From IMG/VR virus record IMGVR_UViG_2548876868_000025: a DNA stretch of 10,643 bases. One strand, given 5' to 3'. The position numbers and the translations under genes are program-made. Below are positions 318 through 10,643 of the stretch, piece by piece (the stretch's first letter is position 1; the number at the start of each line of letters is the position of its first letter). A model generated the notes under the pieces. It saw only the letters and a program-made list of their open reading frames with translations. It was not told the DNA's origin and made no database searches. The DNA comes from a virus. Its lineage: Duplodnaviria; Heunggongvirae; Uroviricota; Caudoviricetes.

Positions 318-537
318 GGTCCTTCCTGGAATTATGGCCCGTTACGGGGCGGCGACCTCGCGCGTTTTCGCTATTTATGAAAATTTTTAGGGAAAAAGCA
401 GATCCGTTCTTCTTCTCTGTAACAGAATGTTTAACAATGAAAATATTAAAAAAAGAAAGGATCTTACACGAGGCATTTTAGCCAGAAAATGCCATTATCA
501 GATCCTTTCTCATTTTTGTTCAATAATTGCGCGTCTG
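318..537 (+). other. cos1: lambda-type cohesive-end site (cosN 347-358, followed by a lambda-like cosB region)
   Basis: Plus strand reads cgttacg GGGCGGCGACCT cgcgcgttttcgctatttatgaaaattttt, nearly identical to the phage lambda left end as recalled. Downstream blocks ccgttcttcttc, aaaagaaagga, tcctttctc and tttttgt mirror lambda cosB R-site/IHF-region sequence. Confidence 0.75.
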
Positions 538-1080
538 TTACTCGCCTTTCTTCTGTAGCAACTTTTCCGGTACGTTTCCGGTTGTTTCTTTCAAGTAATC
601 AGCCAGTATCTGTGGGAGGTTGTCGGCAACTCTGGCACTGGCATTACAGGCTTTAACCACTTCCCTTTTAAGCCTATCCAGCATGGCGGGGGTAATCTGT
701 GGGAAGCTCCTTTGCATAGTAAGCGGGAGGCTGTCCATGATTGATGAAATCTGACTCGCCAGCTTTGAAAGCGCGTACAGGCAAAACTCAGTATCAATCA
801 CGTTACCGCGATCGCGCTCGTTTTTAAGTTCCTGCGCCTCCGCCTGTACTGTCAGTAATCTGATCCTGACTCGTAAGAGTTCATCATCATCAATCTCGCC
901 TTTGTCGTTTGTAAGCTGGCTAATTGCATTGTTAACCCTATTGTCTATCACGCTGGCAACATCATAAAACGCCTCACGGCCTTTACGTTCAACGGGTGTC
1001 ACTCCCCACTTGTCGAACGCTGTCGCACTTACACGGCAGCTTTTCGCCATGTTTTTTTTGTTCATCAGGTGCGATTTCAT
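538..1080 (-). CDS. terminase small subunit, lambda Nu1-like
   Basis: 180 aa. The C-terminal half aligns by eye to lambda Nu1 (RLLTVQAEAQELKNERDRGNVIDTEFCLYALSKLASQISSIMDSLPLTMQRSFP versus RLTRAQADAQELKNARDSAEVVETAFCTFVLSRIAGEIASILDGLPLSVQRRFP). N-terminal NKK...W motif is in a similar position; alternative start is ATG at 1065. A cos site lies about 135 bp upstream, as in lambda. Confidence 0.85.
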   Translation of the reverse strand: MKSHLMNKKNMAKSCRVSATAFDKWGVTPVERKGREAFYDVASVIDNRVNNAISQLTNDKGEIDDDELLRVRIRLLTVQAEAQELKNERDRGNVIDTEFCLYALSKLASQISSIMDSLPLTMQRSFPQITPAMLDRLKREVVKACNASARVADNLPQILADYLKETTGNVPEKLLQKKGE

Positions 1081-1180: not shown

Positions 1181-1256
1181 CCCGAAAAGGCTCATAAATA
1201 GCGAAAATCCGCGAGGTCGCCGCCCCGTAACGGGTCCATATGCCGGAAAGGACCCG
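1181..1256 (-). other. cos2: lambda-type cohesive-end site (cosN 1214-1225 on the minus strand), upstream of and colinear with the Nu1-like gene
   Basis: Minus strand reads acgggtcctttccgg...cgttacg GGGCGGCGACCT cgcggattttcgctatttatga. The core 23 bp is identical to cos1 and the upstream flank resembles the lambda right end (ACGGGTCCTTTCCGG). Confidence 0.75.
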
Positions 1257-1257
1257 T

Positions 1258-1280
1258 AAAAAAAGCCGGATTTCTCCGGC
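1258..1280 (-). terminator. rho-independent terminator after the 137-aa gene
   Basis: Hairpin GCCGGAtttcTCCGGC (1265-1280) followed on the minus strand by a 7-U run (1258-1264), 5 nt after the stop at 1286-1288. Confidence 0.7.
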
Positions 1281-1285
1281 CTGTC

Positions 1286-1699
1286 TCAGATGGTTTTCAG
1301 TATGCGATCGATGTCGCGGTCATCGCCCGGCTTTCTGCCATCGTATGCCATGCCTGCTGATACGGCTTGCGGGCTGTGCATGTCCATAAAGTTTTCAAAG
1401 GCTGCGGTAAGCTCTGGTGCAACCTTCTGGCGTTCCTGCTCTATGGTCATGCTAAGGATGCTTTTAGCCGTACCAACATCGATACAAGGCACGTTTGCCA
1501 TTGCACGTAACAGCGGCTGATAGTCGCCAGATTCATCAAGCGCCATAATCGCATCAGAGCGCGGCTTGTCCTGCTCTTCCAGTTTGTTGAGTTGATATAC
1601 GGCCTCGTAGGTTGATAACCCTCTGTCAGCCATTGCCCGCGCTTCGGCTTTAAATTTACTCGCCAGCGGTAGCGTCATGATGCTTTCATTCGTTGCCAT
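1286..1699 (-). CDS. hypothetical protein (137 aa), last gene of the capsid operon
   Basis: ORF tightly packed after the gpD-like gene (12-bp gap) and followed by a terminator. Sits where lambda has FI, but no similarity to a known family could be confirmed. Confidence 0.55.
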   Translation of the reverse strand: MATNESIMTLPLASKFKAEARAMADRGLSTYEAVYQLNKLEEQDKPRSDAIMALDESGDYQPLLRAMANVPCIDVGTAKSILSMTIEQERQKVAPELTAAFENFMDMHSPQAVSAGMAYDGRKPGDDRDIDRILKTI

Positions 1700-1711
1700 C
1701 GTTCCCCCTGC

Positions 1712-2056
1712 TTATCGCGCCAGCGGCTGAACGGATACGCCAGAACCCGCAAAGGCGGCGCATTTTTTCGCATCGGTGTCGACGCTCTCAGGCCAGTTAA
1801 CGGCGGCGATATTAAATATCCCCGTCTTATAGCACTGTGCTGATTTCTGCGTCGACGTGTCAACGGGGTACGAGGTCAGATAAACAGCCTTGCCAGATTC
1901 CTGACCATCCCACGGCTTAAACTCGCCATTGTCCGCCAGCATCAGCGGGGTAAATTCCTGAATAACGCCAGCATCAGCGGCAAAATGTACCAGCGTCGTT
2001 GATACCTGCTGACTGCCTGCAAATAACTCAATGTATGGAGTGTTCATAGAATCCAC
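1712..2056 (-). CDS. head decoration protein, lambda gpD-like
   Basis: 114 aa. TPLMLADNGEFKPWDG...CYKTGIFNIAAVNWPESVDTDAKKCAAFAGSGVSV parallels lambda gpD TPLMLDTSSRKLVAWDG...[35 protein letters not shown]. Only 2 bp separate it from the capsid gene. Confidence 0.8.
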   Translation of the reverse strand: MDSMNTPYIELFAGSQQVSTTLVHFAADAGVIQEFTPLMLADNGEFKPWDGQESGKAVYLTSYPVDTSTQKSAQCYKTGIFNIAAVNWPESVDTDAKKCAAFAGSGVSVQPLAR

Positions 2057-2058
2057 CG

Positions 2059-3114
2059 TTAACCAATTTTGACGGTAACAAATTTTCGAATATCTGCCGG
2101 AACAGGCTGCGGTGCGCTGTGTGTCTGCACGTACTCAATCGCCGGATCGCCGTCTTCAATCCAGTTTTTCGGGTAAAACATGTTTTGCGTTGCGCCCGTT
2201 CTTACCGCTTCCTGTTCCATAATCGCACCATAGGCCACCAGCCCTTTATTGTTGGTGTTGCCCAGGACCAGCAAATCAGGCTCAAGGAAATATTTTTCTG
2301 TGCCGTCGCTGTCAGTGTATTTGCCGGAATAGACGATAAGGGCCAGATCACCAAGATAGCCTTTAAAGCTCACCACTTCGCCCAGGTTTTTACATGCCAG
2401 CTCTGCGGCGGATTCTGAACCACGGGAGAGATCGTACAGTTCACGGAATTTTTTAAAGCTGCGTAACATGCGCCATACATCAACGCCCATAATCATGACG
2501 TTGGCGGGGCAACCTGCCTGATCTGCGTATAGTTCAATGTCATATATTGGGTCGTGTATGTCTTTATCCTGCTCAGACCATTTTTTACCGTCGGCCTGCT
2601 CTATGATGTTTTTTTCCGGTATCTTCCAGTCGATTTCATAGCGTTCTATGCCTTCGCCCTCAATGATGTTTTTTCCGGTCGTTACCGCATTCACCGCCAG
2701 CCATTCAACGCGTGCCTTAATGGCGTTTATCTGGCGGCGCATGTTGCCAGTAATCAGGCGCATACGGCGGTAGGTAGGATCGTTAAGCTGTGCCGGATCT
2801 TCTCCAGCCATGCGCATTATTGTTTTTAATGGATCGATTTCGTGTTTTGGCTTCATGTAGCCAGGGCGGATAATGCTGGTTTCGTACCCTTTATCGCGCT
2901 GAACCTGGCTGCCAACCATAGGCGAACAAAACGCCGACATAGTGACTTCTTCAATATCCAGGTTATCTAACATGATGTCCTGCGTGTTGAATGTCGCCAC
3001 GTTCGGGAAAAACAGCGCGGTAAACAGCGGACTAAATTTAAATTCCGCAATATCCTCGCGATTCAGGTACGCGAAAAGCTGGTGTGTGTTAAGTGCTATT
3101 GCTTTGACTGCCAT
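2059..3114 (-). CDS. major capsid protein, lambda gpE family
   Basis: 351 aa. Multiple blocks match lambda gpE: FKFSPLF/FKFDPLF, RPGYMKPKHEIDP/TPGYVKPKHEVNP, EDPAQLNDPTYRRMRLI/EDPQNLADPAYRRRRII, YPKNWIEDGDPA/YPKNWVTTGDPA. Length matches gpE (341 aa). Confidence 0.9.
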   Translation of the reverse strand: MAVKAIALNTHQLFAYLNREDIAEFKFSPLFTALFFPNVATFNTQDIMLDNLDIEEVTMSAFCSPMVGSQVQRDKGYETSIIRPGYMKPKHEIDPLKTIMRMAGEDPAQLNDPTYRRMRLITGNMRRQINAIKARVEWLAVNAVTTGKNIIEGEGIERYEIDWKIPEKNIIEQADGKKWSEQDKDIHDPIYDIELYADQAGCPANVMIMGVDVWRMLRSFKKFRELYDLSRGSESAAELACKNLGEVVSFKGYLGDLALIVYSGKYTDSDGTEKYFLEPDLLVLGNTNNKGLVAYGAIMEQEAVRTGATQNMFYPKNWIEDGDPAIEYVQTHSAPQPVPADIRKFVTVKIG

Positions 3115-3320
3115 TATTCGCCCCCATAATTTTTGTGCATCCCAAGCGCCGCAAGTAAATAAGATCGCACAAGTGAACCTATCGACGGCTCCGGCGTCAT
3201 CAGCGGATCCAGTCCAGCCGCAACGCCAGCTTCATAGTTTTTTTTGTGGCGCTGCTTGAGCACCTCCACGATTTCGGGGCTTATGTACACCGAAACACCG
3301 CCTTTTTTCTCTTCAGCCAT
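3114..3320 (-). CDS. small protein (68 aa) translationally coupled to the capsid gene; possible ribbon-helix-helix fold, or a small scaffold-like factor
   Basis: TAATG stop/start overlap with the capsid gene. SD-like AGAGGAA upstream of the ATG at 3320. VSVYISPEIVEVLKQ resembles an RHH beta-strand plus helix; function unassigned. Confidence 0.5.
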   Translation of the reverse strand: MAEEKKGGVSVYISPEIVEVLKQRHKKNYEAGVAAGLDPLMTPEPSIGSLVRSYLLAALGMHKNYGGE

Positions 3321-3349
3321 AGTAAGAAATTCCTCTTCGACTAAAAAAA

Positions 3350-3410
3350 TTATAACTGGATGTTTATCCAGTCCTGATTATAATCAGAATTGCATTTTAT
3401 GCAATGATAT
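3350..3410 (-). promoter_or_regulatory. Candidate sigma70 promoter of the capsid operon, overlapped by three palindromes
   Basis: On the minus strand: TTGCAT, a 16-bp spacer, then TATAAT. Palindromes TTGCATtttATGCAA (3391-3405), CTGATTATAATCAG (3374-3387, containing the -10) and CTGGATgtttATCCAG (3356-3371, near the expected transcription start). Confidence 0.5.
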
Positions 3411-3485
3411 TGAGTTATGTTGCAAATTATGAAATGATTATCCCGATCACGAACGCCAGTGCATCCAAAAACCTCATATGCAAAA

Positions 3486-3529: not shown

Positions 3530-3551
3530 AAAAAAGCCGGATTGCTCCGGC
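3530..3551 (-). terminator. rho-independent terminator after the 74-aa gene
   Basis: Hairpin GCCGGAttgcTCCGGC (3536-3551) followed on the minus strand by a 6-U run (3530-3535). Confidence 0.7.
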
Positions 3552-3571
3552 TATGTGTGCTGTGTGCTGGC

Positions 3572-3892: not shown

Positions 3893-3915
3893 AAAAAAAG
3901 CCGGATTTCTCCGGC
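3893..3915 (-). terminator. rho-independent terminator after the 90-aa gene
   Basis: Hairpin GCCGGAtttcTCCGGC (3900-3915) followed on the minus strand by a 7-U run (3893-3899); the stop codon is at 3923-3925. Confidence 0.7.
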
Positions 3916-3922
3916 TGTTTGA

Positions 3923-4882: not shown

Positions 4883-5068
4883 TTTTACGCCTCACTTTTT
4901 AAAGCGTCTCGCTTCGTCTCACTTGAGATTTTTGTGTTTTGTATGCGCATGTTTCATAAGTGTTTTTTTTACGCCTCACTTTTGAGCATGTATACAGGTG
5001 AGAAAGTGAGCAATCGTGTTAATATTTTGTAAAAACCTCACCATTACTCACTTTTGCTACTCACTTTT
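4878..5068. repeat. Iteron array (candidate replication origin) immediately 3' of the replicase gene
   Basis: CTCACTTTT direct repeats at 4878, 4891, 4975, 5047 and 5060, a variant CTCACTTGA at 4918 and an inverted copy in GTGAGAAAGTGAG (4998-5010). An AT-rich tract lies between them (4921-4970). Confidence 0.6.
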
Positions 5069-6465
5069 TACAGTGGTCCTACATCATCACCATCAATGTA
5101 AATCACGGCGTCTTTTTCCAGTTTGGCTAACCATCGCCGCATATTTTTCACGTCATACCCAAGCCGTTTCATGTCATCACGTAACAGCGGGATCGTGCAC
5201 TTGTCGCCGTTCTGTGTACGTGAACGGATGCACCCCCATAGCGCGGTATGGTTTTCCGTCTTGTTGCCTGCCTCCTCGATGCGCTCCAGTTCAACGGGAG
5301 GGCGCGGCTTATCCACCACCACCAGCGACGTGATTAACTCCCCGTCAGCGTCGGTAAAAAGCTCCACCACGCGTAAGTCATATGCGGCTTCTTTGAGTTC
5401 CTCCGCGTCCTTCATTTTGGTGCATGAGATAACCAGCGCTTCGCTGCCTGCGTCCTCCCTGCGTATCCGGTATTCAGCGTCCAGTGATGCACGAAATGCA
5501 CTGGAACCACGCGCCCCCTTTGTTTCATCCTTGCCGGAATGGTGAACCACCAGCACCGTGGCCCCTGTGCGCCGTTTCAGTTCGTCACAACCACGGATAA
5601 ACGCCCCCATATCACGGGAATCATTTTCATCATTACCACCAAAGCAACGCGCCAGCGTATCCAGAATAATCATGCGTACAGGTTTACCCGTTTCCCGCTC
5701 CACCTGACGGGCAGCGATAACCATTTCATCAACATCAAACGGGGCAGCCGGAAAGATGGGACGGTTTACCAGGTACAGATTTTTCACCTGCTCACCGTGC
5801 ACAACTTCCCACGCTCTCACGCGACGCGGTACACCAATACCGCCTTCACCAACCACATAGAGGACCGCACCATGTGCAACCCTGCGGCCTCCCCAGTGGC
5901 GACCCGTTGAAACGTGACACGCCCACGAACCAGCAAGGAACGACTTATATGAACCGCTCGCCCCGTATATGCTGCATAGCGACGATGCCGGAATAATCCC
6001 CTTTACCACGTAATCTAATTGCGTGTCGTATCCGGCAGATCCAACGCTCATCGGTAGCGTGGTTTTTCGCTGGTGGCTCAGGCTTTCCCCGCGTTCCCAT
6101 GTCTCCCTAAGCCGTGGAAGCTGGTCGCTCCATTCCTCCAGCAATTCGAAATTTTCAGAAAACAGGCGCGCTTCCTGGACTCCTGCGATTGCCAGTTTCG
6201 TGGCGATGGTTAACAACTGCACTTCGTCAATATTTCCGGCACGTATCACTTTCGCCCTGAACCGACCTTTATCAACAATCTGCAAGTTATCCAGTTCGCT
6301 TAACTGATAACGCCCCAGGTAAACGGGAGGGACTGGATCGCCTGCTTTTTTGGCCTGTGCAATGATGTAGTGCTCTGCAAATGAGTGAGCATTATCACCC
6401 GCAAAAATAACCGCTTCGGTGTGTTTATCTTTCGGTAACAGTTTTACATTCGGTGCCAGTTTCAT
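5068..6465 (-). CDS. replication protein with a RecA-like/AAA ATPase core (primase-helicase-type replicase of P4/PICI-like elements)
   Basis: 465 aa. Walker A GASGSYKS and Walker B-like MIILDT followed by an acidic stretch; unassigned N-terminal domain of about 150 aa; C-terminal DNA-binding-like tail. ATGA overlap with the upstream gene. Confidence 0.85.
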   Translation of the reverse strand: MKLAPNVKLLPKDKHTEAVIFAGDNAHSFAEHYIIAQAKKAGDPVPPVYLGRYQLSELDNLQIVDKGRFRAKVIRAGNIDEVQLLTIATKLAIAGVQEARLFSENFELLEEWSDQLPRLRETWERGESLSHQRKTTLPMSVGSAGYDTQLDYVVKGIIPASSLCSIYGASGSYKSFLAGSWACHVSTGRHWGGRRVAHGAVLYVVGEGGIGVPRRVRAWEVVHGEQVKNLYLVNRPIFPAAPFDVDEMVIAARQVERETGKPVRMIILDTLARCFGGNDENDSRDMGAFIRGCDELKRRTGATVLVVHHSGKDETKGARGSSAFRASLDAEYRIRREDAGSEALVISCTKMKDAEELKEAAYDLRVVELFTDADGELITSLVVVDKPRPPVELERIEEAGNKTENHTALWGCIRSRTQNGDKCTIPLLRDDMKRLGYDVKNMRRWLAKLEKDAVIYIDGDDVGPL

Positions 6466-7001: not shown

Positions 7002-7151
7002 TTAATTACCGTCCGTTGTTTTATTTTCTTTCGTGCCAAGTAAGAAAAAGGCCGCTCTTATCAGTTCGGATATTGCAGAAAGCGCATCAGCCGCATCATC
7101 AGATACGCCGGAAAATTCCTGTTTCAGGGAATTAAAACGATCATCACGCAT
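7002..7151 (-). CDS. hypothetical small protein (49 aa)
   Basis: ATG at 7151 overlaps the upstream stop (ATGCGTGA); its stop lies 1 nt before the next ATG. The longer version from 7199 would overlap the upstream gene by 56 nt. Could be non-coding. Confidence 0.3.
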   Translation of the reverse strand: MRDDRFNSLKQEFSGVSDDAADALSAISELIRAAFFLLGTKENKTTDGN

Positions 7152-7365
7152 AACCCCCCCCATTTTCACAATCAGCAATAAGAATATTTTTAGCGTCATT
7201 CAGCGACCGCGTGGCGGTGTATCGGATACATTCCAGGGCGAACAATGTGTATTCTTCCCGTTCTTCCTTTTGTGCAAGCCCTGCTGTGCATTCAATATCA
7301 ATAAGTGCGTGCATCAGCGTAGTGAGCGCGGCGGCTGCTGCGTCCGGTGTGGTTTTATTGTGCAT
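7144..7365 (-). CDS. hypothetical protein (73 aa)
   Basis: ATG at 7365 with AGGGGA 7 nt upstream; overlaps the last codons of the Icd-like gene B. No family recognised. Confidence 0.45.
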   Translation of the reverse strand: MHNKTTPDAAAAALTTLMHALIDIECTAGLAQKEEREEYTLFALECIRYTATRSLNDAKNILIADCENGGGYA

Positions 7366-7528: not shown

Positions 7529-7814
7529 GTGAAAGGCTCCCAGATGAAATTTAAGGAGTCTCGCTACTACGCTGTCAAACATGGTGGCGAGACGTAACAG
7601 GGTTGACAGACTGGTCATCTGGAAACCAGCGAGCGCAAAGGCTCCCCCGTTACGCCCCGCCATAATGCGGGTATGGGTAGGTTTACGGACACAAAAAAAC
7701 CGCTTATCGGATATGGGCGGCTGTCCGCCAGATGTATTCAGGCTGTCAAACCCGGTCGCCATGTGGGCGACGGGTGAAGCATACAGCCCCGTGATAATTT
7801 TTTGCAAGCGGTTT

Positions 7815-8697: not shown

Positions 8698-8904
8698 TTA
8701 AGCAGCCGTTACGCGCGCTTCCTGTTCGCGTTCTTTCATCCAGGCGATTACGTCATCCTCATACCATCCCCGACGGCGTAAACCAACACGAAAACCCTGC
8801 GGGAATTCTCCGGCGTTGATCATGCTTTGCAGCGTGCTGTCTGCCTTGATGTGGATAAGTTTTTTTACTTCCTGGCGAAAGATGACTTTTTTGATTGCTT
8901 CCAT
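8698..8904 (-). CDS. alpA: AlpA-family transcriptional regulator / excisionase-like protein
   Basis: 68 aa. ...STLQSMINAGEFPQGFRVGLRRRGWYEDDVIAWMKERE fits the AlpA/Vis pattern (HTH, G-FP, conserved W, C-terminal W). AAGG SD upstream. Located just downstream of int, as in P4-like and PICI elements. Confidence 0.85.
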   Translation of the reverse strand: MEAIKKVIFRQEVKKLIHIKADSTLQSMINAGEFPQGFRVGLRRRGWYEDDVIAWMKEREQEARVTAA

Positions 8905-9037: not shown

Positions 9038-9060
9038 AAAAAAAGCGGCATTTCTGCCGC
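9038..9060 (-). terminator. rho-independent terminator downstream of int and the 76-aa ORF
   Basis: Hairpin GCGGCAtttcTGCCGC (9045-9060) followed on the minus strand by a 7-U run (9038-9044). Confidence 0.65.
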
Positions 9061-9072
9061 TTTCAGGGAGTG

Positions 9073-9401: not shown

Positions 9402-10643
9402 CTACACGGCCCGAATACCCCTTTTACCACTGGCAAGGGTTACGCCCGTTGCCGCCGCCTCGACAAATTCGCCCCACCAGCGCATAAGCACAATGCGTTT
9501 TTCTATGTAGTTGCTCCGGTTGTATGCCCGTCTCACTTCGTTGGTGTCCACGTGGGCTAGTGCGGCCTCGATTACGTCCGGCTCAAATCCTTCTTCGTTC
9601 GCTGCGGTGCTGAATATGGCGCGCATACCGTGAGAAACCAGAATCCCGCCAAACCCCATCCGCCGCAATGCTGCGTTTGCGGTCTGGCTGTTCATAGGCT
9701 GCCGTGGGTCTTTCAGGCTCGGGAAAACATAATCGCGGTGGTGGCTGATTGGTTTCATGGCCTCCAGTACCGCCATGGCCTGACTACAAAGCGGGATAAC
9801 GTGATCACGCCGCATCTTCATGCGTCCGGCGGGTATCGTCCATTGTTGCGCGTCCAGGTCGATTTCTTCCCAGCGTGCTGACGATGCTTCAACCGGACGG
9901 GTTACAGTCAGTAACTGCCATTCAATCAGTAATCTGGTCTGCCGTTCTGTTGCCGATACTGATAAAGCCTGCATAAGCTCCGGCAACTGTTCGGGGCGGA
10001 TTGTTGGCATATGTTTTTTTACAGGGGAGGGGAACGCCTTACGCACATTCATAGCCGGATTGGTATCAATCAGCCCACTGTTGGCGGCGTAATCCATTAC
10101 CTCATTAATTCGCTGCAAAACCCGCTTTAGTGTTTCCAGGTTGCCACGTTCCTTGATGGGGGTAAGCACCTCAACGAACCTGCGAGCGGTCAGGGTGTCT
10201 ATTGGCGTGTTGCCGATGAACGGGAATACATATTTTTCCAGCGAACGCCAGATGTCTTTAATCGTGTTGGGGGCCAGATTCTGGCTGATTTTCACCTGGT
10301 ACCATGCCGCCGCCACATTTTCGAACGTGTTCCCTTGTCTTCGGGCCTCTGTCTCTCTTTTTTGCCTCTCGTGGTCCTGCGGGTCAGTTCCGGCACTGAT
10401 TAACGTCCTGTACTCGCTACGGCGTTTTCTGGCATCAGCCAGGGAAACATCTTCAAGCGATCCAAAACTCAGCAATATTCTTTTTTTGTCCGATGGTCGG
10501 TAGTAGGAAAATCTCCAGAGTTTTGATCCAGACGGTTTGACCAAGAGAAAAAGCCCTCCGCCGTCCTGCAGGGTGTACTCCTTTTGCGCTGGTCTGGCTG
10601 CTTTGATCTGCACTGTGGTTAATGGGTGTGTTTTTCTCGCCAT
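9402..10643 (-). CDS. int: tyrosine site-specific integrase, P4 family
   Basis: 413 aa. N-terminal arm-type DNA-binding region (LTTVQIKAARPAQKEYTLQDGGGLFLLVKPSGSKLWRFSYY) and C-terminal catalytic region with HGMRAIFST (H-x-x-R) and a tyrosine in RRAYNRSNY. The start codon is the last three bases of the window. Confidence 0.95.
   Translation of the reverse strand: MARKTHPLTTVQIKAARPAQKEYTLQDGGGLFLLVKPSGSKLWRFSYYRPSDKKRILLSFGSLEDVSLADARKRRSEYRTLISAGTDPQDHERQKRETEARRQGNTFENVAAAWYQVKISQNLAPNTIKDIWRSLEKYVFPFIGNTPIDTLTARRFVEVLTPIKERGNLETLKRVLQRINEVMDYAANSGLIDTNPAMNVRKAFPSPVKKHMPTIRPEQLPELMQALSVSATERQTRLLIEWQLLTVTRPVEASSARWEEIDLDAQQWTIPAGRMKMRRDHVIPLCSQAMAVLEAMKPISHHRDYVFPSLKDPRQPMNSQTANAALRRMGFGGILVSHGMRAIFSTAANEEGFEPDVIEAALAHVDTNEVRRAYNRSNYIEKRIVLMRWWGEFVEAAATGVTLASGKRGIRAV

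Follow-up and report, generated by a model that had tools for sequence, protein, structure and literature searches.

Why does a phage satellite carry genes for a phage head? The question is raised by IMG/VR record IMGVR_UViG_2548876868_000025, a stretch of 10,643 nucleotides (hereafter the window, meaning this whole stretch) in which four adjacent genes encode a capsid protein, a decoration protein and two small companions. The window is a complete Gram-negative phage-inducible chromosomal island (PICI) of the EcCICFT073 family, a satellite of lambdoid cos phages, and is read as such because its architecture is that described by Fillol-Salom et al. 2018 (PMC6092414). Its four genes are c1498-c1501 of the prototype EcCICFT073, and the operon itself is already published; the assignment of the c1501-type protein to the scaffolds is new here, and a search of the accessible literature found no paper tying PICIs to Nu3. 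Judged from its sequence, the operon is a self-consistent morphogenetic set, comprising an E-type HK97-fold capsid protein, a D-type cement protein and a truncated, protease-less Nu3/gp6-type scaffold, which descend from a head module of the phage-21/lambda type. Our answer to the question, put forward tentatively and as a little short of probable, is that this kit makes satellite-encoded shells on the portal of the helper and is redundant when the helper is healthy.

On the minus strand, positions 3320-1286 form a tight operon in which the gene for a 68-aa protein is followed by those for a 351-aa capsid protein, a decoration protein and a 137-aa protein. An intrinsic terminator comes next, and a lambda-type cos site after it. 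The features are, in order of transcription:

3321..3440, minus strand: conserved upstream control region of the operon, predicted from its conservation
3114..3320, minus strand: gene for the 68-aa protein, orthologue of c1498, satellite-specific, possibly ribbon-helix-helix (RHH)-like and coupled in translation to the capsid gene (open reading frame and PHROG match)
2059..3114, minus strand: major capsid protein of the lambda gpE family, 351 aa, orthologue of c1499 (PDB 3BQW; Pfam, PHROG and PDB matches)
1712..2056, minus strand: head decoration (cement) protein of the lambda gpD / phage 21 SHP family, orthologue of c1500 (Pfam and PDB matches)
1286..1699, minus strand: protease-less scaffold homologue of 137 aa, orthologue of c1501 (profile and tblastn homology to gpC/Nu3)
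1263..1282, minus strand: intrinsic terminator closing the operon, with an 8-bp stem and a T run
1200..1240, minus strand: lambda-type cos site just 3' of the operon, with a cosN core at 1210-1225 and a non-lambda cosB side

An earlier note on this DNA, made from the sequence alone, had described gpE-like and gpD-like proteins in an order other than that of lambda, preceded by a small gene coupled to the capsid gene and closed by a terminator, and in these respects it holds. All four open reading frames (ORFs) lie where it placed them, the stop codon of the 68-aa gene and the start codon of the capsid gene share one base at 3114 (TAATG), and an intrinsic-terminator-like hairpin at 1282-1263 directly follows the last stop codon. 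The gaps at the two later gene junctions measure 11-12 nt, with a good Shine-Dalgarno sequence at each. Two details of the four-gene reading need correction. The decoration protein, 114 aa if read from GTG 2056, is more likely a protein of 111 aa starting at ATG 2047, the start preferred by RefSeq and by the position of the Shine-Dalgarno sequence, and the 137-aa protein is not anonymous but a fragment of a Nu3/gp6-type scaffold.

The capsid protein matches Pfam Phage_cap_E (PF03864) at 5e-49 (167.5 bits against a cut-off of 22.9, residues 27-349) and PHROG 29 at 2e-107, and its PDB matches include c1499 itself (3BQW, 4.8e-228) and lambda gpE (7VI9, 4e-81). The CFT073 orthologue, c1499, folds and has been crystallised (3BQW). 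Sequence identity is 43% to lambda E over 328 aa, 45-48% to phage-21-type E proteins and 48% to E of PhiR12_2_star, while the closest capsid protein among 50,697 phage records reaches 48.4%. The decoration protein matches Pfam HDPD (PF02924) at 3.7e-18, scoring 66.2 bits where the cut-off is 29.1, and among solved structures SHP of phage 21 (PDB 1TD0, 6e-14) comes nearest to it. Both family assignments go far beyond what chance would give. It is 37% identical to lambda D and 37-45% identical to lambda or 21-type proteins in general, the closest relative in the same phage records standing at 45.3%. Pairwise comparisons among six elements give the capsid gene a ratio of nonsynonymous to synonymous substitution rates (dN/dS) of 0.06-0.15, and the decoration gene one of 0.05-0.19. 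Both genes are under strong purifying selection, and the capsid gene is clearly not the pseudogene that would have spoken against the earlier note.

The evidence for a scaffold comes from several comparisons of the 137-aa protein. A secondary PHROG match places it at the end of a 'head maturation protease' family (positions 495-566 of 583), and its sole tblastn match in the phage collection lies inside the gpC/Nu3 gene of PhiR12_2_star, with 39% identity over 70 residues (positions 416-484 of the 501-aa gpC). A hidden Markov model (HMM) of the 137-aa family recognises gpC of PhiR12 (2e-10), Gifsy-1 (8.5e-10) and phage 21 (1.4e-8), E-values being computed with the search space set to one million; run against all ORFs of six phage head regions, its six best matches are the six gpC frames. 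The aligned part consists of a repeated 'IMxLxEaxG...A..La..PgmtVe.Ar.IL' motif, present twice in the 137-aa protein, and a 'FExFMxxHSPxAV' tail, both of which fall in the scaffold portion common to gpC and Nu3/gp6. The homologous region is therefore the one that gpC and Nu3 share. This homology is both significant and specific. Identity to lambda or 21-type scaffold proteins is 37-39%, and the homology is visible only with phage-21-type gpC/Nu3 and with profiles; BLASTP of lambda Nu3 against the 137-aa protein gives no alignment. Taken together, these sequence comparisons indicate that the 137-aa protein, which has no protease part and a gene to itself, is homologous to about the last two thirds of a phage-21-type scaffold. 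Nu3 and gp6 are encoded in frame within a protease gene and share its C-terminus; the 137-aa protein has a separate gene 3' of the decoration gene, and no S49 protease is found in the element.

Structure prediction, proposed earlier for both small proteins, was of limited help with this one. Its AlphaFold2 (AF2) model is helical with a mean predicted local distance difference test (pLDDT) score of 50, which was too poor for a fold search, and PDB sequence searches with the single sequence or a profile returned nothing meaningful. Low-confidence helical models are common for scaffolds. The dN/dS of the gene is 0.22-0.55. Natural variants of 93 aa (P0050, P0053 and P0056) have lost exactly one of the two repeats, by a deletion between two 'RAMA' motifs.

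With c1501 recognised as a scaffold homologue, the satellite has a matched kit of shell, cement and scaffold, and the arrangement of this kit can be compared with that of phages. In all six phages compared (lambda, 21, PhiR12, Gifsy-1, N15 and phiARM81ld) the order is portal, C/Nu3, D, E, whereas the island has E, D, Nu3-like; the position of E before D is thus a real difference from the phages. A lambdoid prophage of CFT073, located at icd, carries a phage-21-type head module whose proteins are 45% (capsid), 43% (decoration) and 37% (scaffold) identical to those of the island, and icd is the site in CFT073 where the reported helper sits (PMC10111431). Since no phage relative is close and even this prophage module is only 37-45% identical, the three genes represent an old, co-diverged satellite lineage and not a recent capture. 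Measured against the helper type, the three head proteins show comparable divergence.

The lineage is also widespread. Parts of the window match 2,213 of the 5,426 complete E. coli genomes, and the four-gene operon is covered to at least 80% in 591 of them. In the six elements compared all four genes are intact, despite four integration sites and three kinds of replication module. Against the operon of EcCICFT073, taken from the CFT073 genome, the operon of the window is 92.4% identical in DNA, with protein identities of 94.6% (capsid), 96.4% (decoration) and 96.4% (137 aa), but only 68% for the 68-aa protein. In the supplementary table of the 2018 paper the lengths are 68 aa for c1498 and 137 aa for c1501, and the text of that paper calls c1499 a putative capsid protein and c1500 a protein of head decoration (PMC6092414).

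How such a kit might be used is suggested by what it contains and what it lacks. No portal, protease, large terminase (TerL), tail or lysis gene is present among the window ORFs according to the ORF list, Pfam, PHROG and RefSeq annotation, in agreement with the earlier note, in which portal and protease are borrowed. After induction of the helper, the capsid, cement and scaffold proteins would assemble satellite procapsid shells on the helper portal, and the helper gpC protease would mature them. The helper large terminase could then fill these shells under the direction of the Nu1-like small terminase (TerS) and cos of the island, the D-like protein would cement them, and helper connectors and tails would complete the particle. 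The shells are probably of full size, since about four island lengths fit one lambda head (four copies make ~45 kb, or ~94% of the lambda genome), in agreement with the phage-sized DNA of EcCICFT073. A joint role in shell-making is the simplest reading because shell, cement and scaffold are kept together, are similarly diverged and are strongly constrained. The payoff would be expected when the capsid genes of the helper are limiting, or are defective or interrupted.

Several observations weigh against shell-making by the satellite. When c1499 or c1500 was deleted in EcCICFT073, the resident prophage transferred the island as before and lambda was still subject to the same interference (PMC6092414). 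Islands marked as c1499::cat or c1501::tetA are still transferred by lambda or phi80, and when the whole c1498-c1501 block is replaced by cas9 or melA, phi80 still packages and transfers the island. The literature holds no report of satellite E-like or D-like proteins in particles. The protease and portal of the helper would need to tolerate a shell protein with only about 45% identity to that of the helper, and the model of the scaffold-like protein is of low confidence. As marked and block-replaced islands are still transferred, helper capsids suffice, and the dispensability of the operon for transfer in the laboratory is solid. The published experiments on c1498-c1501 thus make this a module both known and dispensable in the laboratory. 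More generally, 21 of the 29 reference Gram-negative PICIs have a capsid gene, more than have any other late gene, and transfer does not require it (Mageeney et al., PMC10111431). Helper-driven induction, replication and transfer have been shown experimentally for the related EcCICFT073.

The lack of a laboratory phenotype can nevertheless be reconciled with satellite-encoded shells, because the supply would be redundant whenever the helper, be it lambda, phi80 or of the 21 type, is healthy and makes heads in abundance. We considered whether the negative genetics could be an artefact of markers placed inside the operon, as the lambda experiments on capsid size and composition used islands carrying c1501::tetA or c1499::cat. 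This objection does not restore an essential role, given that transfer persists when the entire block is replaced; it remains valid for capsid size and composition. Recognition of the scaffold homologue makes a shell of the satellite's own on a borrowed portal and protease, the strategy suggested in the earlier note, somewhat more plausible. We regard as doubtful the wider proposal that EcCICFT073-type PICIs are 'half capsid-forming', that is, that they make their own full-size shell from capsid, cement and a protease-less mini-scaffold while stealing portal, protease, large terminase, connectors and tail. Such a strategy would lie between those of classical PICIs and capsid-forming PICIs (cf-PICIs). 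If it exists, it may have been missed because islands were marked in the operon or had it replaced by cargo, and because healthy helpers masked its effect.

The first gene of the operon poses a question of its own. The 68-aa protein matches PHROG 3255, a family of unknown function, at 8.5e-46; its family has only 16 representatives among 1.8 billion proteins, and there is no homologue in the 50,697 phage records. The gene always lies immediately 5' of the capsid gene. A Salmonella PICI-like element carries a 56%-identical 68-aa homologue directly upstream of its capsid and decoration genes, so that the synteny of small gene, capsid and decoration is kept there at 52-67% protein identity. We also considered a displaced piece of a phage head gene (the N-terminus of Nu3, W, FI and the like), but the HMM of the 68-aa family matches no ORF in six lambdoid head regions. 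PDB sequence searches with the single sequence and with a profile gave nothing meaningful. The protein is most likely a small DNA-binding regulator or an assembly adaptor tied to the capsid gene.

That it is simply an RHH transcription factor, autoregulating the operon through conserved dyads and playing no structural part, is a serious contender, although we lean slightly against it. The RHH-like N-terminus proposed in the earlier note finds consistent signals, every one of which is below threshold (BrnA_antitoxin 0.017; RHH_1 0.15-0.2 in some members), and on these grounds the protein can be called weakly RHH-like. Its AF2 model, with a pLDDT of 74, shows an extended segment at residues 8-14, a helix at 15-34, a conserved loop and a second helix at 47-58. 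No confident RHH dimer emerges from it, and Foldseek with this model returned nothing significant. Moreover, the first helix is unusually long for an RHH protein, and the conserved 12-residue loop has no RHH counterpart. Regulator and operator would be expected to vary together, but the upstream DNA is identical across elements with different 68-aa alleles, which are themselves only 68% identical.

The dN/dS of the 68-aa gene spans 0.07-0.61, and two alleles with ~68% protein identity (dS about 0.6) occur within operons that are otherwise 92-96% identical (loci L004-L008 and L011 compared). From the sequences, this two-allele pattern points to localised recombination or to diversifying selection, acting on the protein from its middle to its C-terminal part. 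At the C-terminus the Gly-Gly-Glu codons are invariant, but they also form the ribosome-binding site of the capsid gene, and for that reason their conservation may act at the nucleotide level.

Upstream of the operon, the 120 nt that precede the 68-aa gene hardly vary among the six E. coli elements, and the same control layout is found in the Salmonella element, whose proteins are only 52-67% identical. Read from the sequence, a candidate sigma-70 promoter consists of TTGCAT at 3404-3399 and TATAAT at 3382-3377, with 16 nt between them. Three dyads are present: TTGCAyAAAATGCAA (TTGCA-N5-TGCAA); TGATTATAATCA, which contains a perfect -10 hexamer; and CTGGAT-N4-ATCCAG, followed by a T run. A promoter scan lists only TTCATA-18-TATCAT (3433-3404) and a hairpin at 3373-3354, with a total promoter count not above chance, and it is conservation that argues for a functional control region. 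In the predicted leader RNA (3321-3376, minus strand; minimum free energy -12.1 kcal/mol, z -2.1) two hairpins are possible, and in the second of them the ribosome-binding site of the 68-aa gene is base-paired to the T/U run. It is speculative to see in these hairpins, together with a -10-like TATAAT/TATGAT after the first one, an attenuator or pause site. At the other end of the operon, nearly the same terminator hairpin (AAAAAAGCCGGATTTCTCCGGC, plus strand) occurs four times at the ends of gene blocks, this one included (1259-1286, 3530-3557, 3894-3921 and 9039-9066).

For the head proteins, a narrower explanation is that the kit serves as a backup that extends the range of usable helpers by complementing those in which a gene for capsid, decoration or scaffold is broken, interrupted or repressed, such as defective lambdoid prophages and the helper-embedded PICIs that integrate in E of the helper. 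It is a special case of satellite-encoded shells in which benefit arises only with crippled helpers, and as the whole explanation we think it unlikely. The helper-embedded PICIs speak for it, as they integrate in the helper capsid gene E and carry a capsid gene of their own, for which their authors suggest the role of a backup copy (PMC10111431). A module that is dispensable with intact lambda or phi80 and yet strongly conserved is what a backup would look like, and with a full-length Nu1-like TerS of its own the island needs fewer helper functions. Elements of the window's family, however, sit at chromosomal sites and not in helper genes, and at 45% identity the shell protein would still have to be compatible with the helper portal and protease.

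Alternatively, the E-, D- and scaffold-like proteins might act as decoys that co-assemble with or titrate the helper portal, protease or E and so spoil the capsids of the helper or of other invading lambdoid phages, in the way that Ccm of SaPIbov5 acts on its helper. That precedent shows a satellite capsid homologue acting on helper assembly, and PICIs generally interfere with their helpers. When the genes after the origin of replication were expressed singly (from pBAD), however, only c1503 (RppA) reduced lambda plaques, deletion of c1503 restored plaque formation almost fully, and deletion of c1499 or c1500 gave no relief. The dominant effect of RppA could have hidden a second, weaker one in these deletion tests, but a pure poison needs no matched cement and scaffold under strong purifying selection, and we consider interference improbable.

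Redirection of capsid size, in which the 68-aa protein (the mini-scaffold of the earlier note) or the truncated scaffold would yield small capsids holding one island copy, has models in the small size-determining proteins of other satellites (CpmB of Staphylococcus aureus pathogenicity islands, SaPIs; Sid of P4) and in Pasteurella PmCI172, which has a capsid homologue and makes small capsids, and every lambda experiment used islands marked inside the operon, but it is the weakest of these readings and very improbable, because all DNA packaged with lambda and EcCICFT073 was phage-sized and CFT073 gave no PICI-monomer band (PMC6092414), because four island lengths fit a lambda head, and because the 68-aa protein resembles no known size determinant and no scaffold C-terminus. 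Nothing observed speaks for the 68-aa protein as a determinant of size. By our estimate, a lambda-type shell scaled as in P2/P4 to T=3 or T=4 is a poor fit for 11.3 kb, and this small-capsid arithmetic was set aside in favour of four-copy packaging in a full-size head.

The satellite-encoded shells proposed above would draw on the packaging functions of the island, which lie 3' of the operon. The further features of the element are:

347..362, plus strand: second copy of cosN, in the opposite orientation to the first and closer to lambda on its cosB side
538..1080, minus strand: full-length Nu1-type small terminase (180 aa), outside the capsid operon (Pfam match)
5068-6465, minus strand: RepA-family helicase
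8698-8904, minus strand: helix-turn-helix (HTH)/AlpA-like gene
9402-10643, minus strand: integrase (int), at one end of the element
Beyond the second, inverted cos site: gene of 93-96 aa
Elsewhere in the window, where nearly all genes lie on the minus strand: single-stranded DNA-binding protein (SSB) gene, PerC-family gene and Icd-like genes

The cosN core next to the operon is an exact GGGCGGCGACCTCGCG, for which 0 matches are expected by chance. Its surroundings (1200..1240) were aligned with the lambda left end and PhiR12, and positions 1192-1263 are 95.8% identical to phage PhiR5_1. The Nu1-like terS lies between two cosN cores that match lambda exactly and are inverted with respect to each other, so that the island has both cos and a packaging protein, as expected of a Gram-negative PICI. 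The small terminase matches Pfam Phage_Nu1 at 1.4e-22 and is 36% identical to lambda Nu1 from end to end, including the TerL-binding C-terminal part; against PDB chains it gave no match at E <= 0.01. These chains should include RppC. In strain PM4-5 the terS segment (L007 8207-8749) is inverted relative to the other five elements, which suggests, from sequence comparison, recombination between the inverted cos copies. The Salmonella relative carries two tandem Rpp-like genes (L009 10157-11025).

That the element is a phage satellite, as the earlier note had supposed, is borne out by its PICI gene set and by its occurrence in bacterial chromosomes, all 10,643 bases being 100% identical to the chromosomes of E. 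coli 7_33_46A and DEC9B. In 7_33_46A the window lies between a yejO pseudogene and tRNA-Pro/yejM. An island of ~11.3 kb adjoining tRNA-Pro between yejO and yejM agrees with the size (about 10-15 kb) and site-specific insertion of Gram-negative PICIs, as do the orientation of nearly all genes on the minus strand, with int at one end and the AlpA-like regulator following it, and a replication module of its own with a RepA-family helicase. Three 17-nt direct repeats (TTTTACGCCTCACTTTT), spaced 84-85 nt apart at 4883-5068, lie immediately 3' of the helicase gene, where the origin of a PICI is expected, and would be its iterons. The island is bracketed by imperfect direct repeats of 26 nt (CCGTATAACyAArCGTATAACTAAAA) that are 11,344 bp apart and lie just outside the window and at its end (L001 5362-5387 and 16706-16731); a clean att core overlapping the 3' end of tRNA-Pro was not found. 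A C4 antisense RNA (Rfam RF01695, 71.6 bits, E 9e-13) is located at 7580-7667 on the minus strand beside the Icd-like genes, with which it resembles the P1 immI (c4-icd-ant) immunity module, here inside a PICI. A small hypothetical gene of the early region (7002-7365, minus strand) is frameshifted according to RefSeq, in contrast to the intact late operon. NCBIfam gave no match for any of the six window proteins searched, and for the 96-aa protein PDB sequence searches, too, brought up nothing meaningful.

The matter is of more than local interest. Roughly one complete E. coli genome in nine has the operon, O157:H7 and Nissle-type strains among them, and capsid genes are the commonest phage-derived genes in Gram-negative PICIs. 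Reading c1501 as a scaffold homologue turns the module into a complete shell-building kit and gives a sharper, testable hypothesis. If satellite proteins were found in particles, and transfer survived the loss of helper head genes, this would define a new intermediate level of helper dependence. It would then also have a bearing on PICIs engineered as delivery vehicles, where cargo routinely takes the place of this block.

Among known systems, EcCICFT073 is closest, with the same four genes in the same order and spacing and the same backbone of int, alpA, replication, SSB, PerC and two cos sites. It differs in encoding RppA (144 aa) where the island has its Nu1-like TerS (180 aa) between two inverted cos copies, and the island for its part has a RepA-helicase replication module, a tRNA-Pro site and the other 68-aa allele (68% identity). 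All three head protein families are homologous to those of the lambda and phage 21 head modules (C-Nu3, D, E; in phage 21 gp5-gp6, SHP, gp7), the decoration and scaffold proteins being closest to the phage 21 type. Unlike these modules, the island has the reverse order and a free-standing scaffold from which the S49 protease body and roughly the first third of Nu3 are missing. It also lacks portal, W, FI and FII, shares only 37-48% identity and carries the extra small gene coupled upstream. CpmB of the SaPIs and Sid of P4 are likewise satellite-encoded in morphogenesis operons, and CpmB is similar in size to the 68-aa protein, which nevertheless has no detected sequence or fold similarity to them; small capsids are not in evidence for EcCICFT073-type PICIs. 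Like the island, SaPIbov5 is a cos-packaged satellite with a homologue of the helper HK97-fold capsid protein, but its Ccm co-assembles with the helper capsid protein into small capsids and blocks the helper, whereas the capsid gene of the island is linked to no size change or interference and is accompanied by a cement and a scaffold gene. The cf-PICIs, such as EcCIEDL933, encode capsid, protease, portal, head-tail connectors, HNH, TerS and TerL and make their own small capsids. No window ORF matches portal, protease or TerL; the island has only shell, cement, scaffold fragment and TerS, with a gpE-type capsid and a gpD-type cement, and its prototype packaged phage-sized DNA. What it shares with the cf-PICIs is a major capsid protein and a packaging specificity of its own, combined with the tails of its helper.

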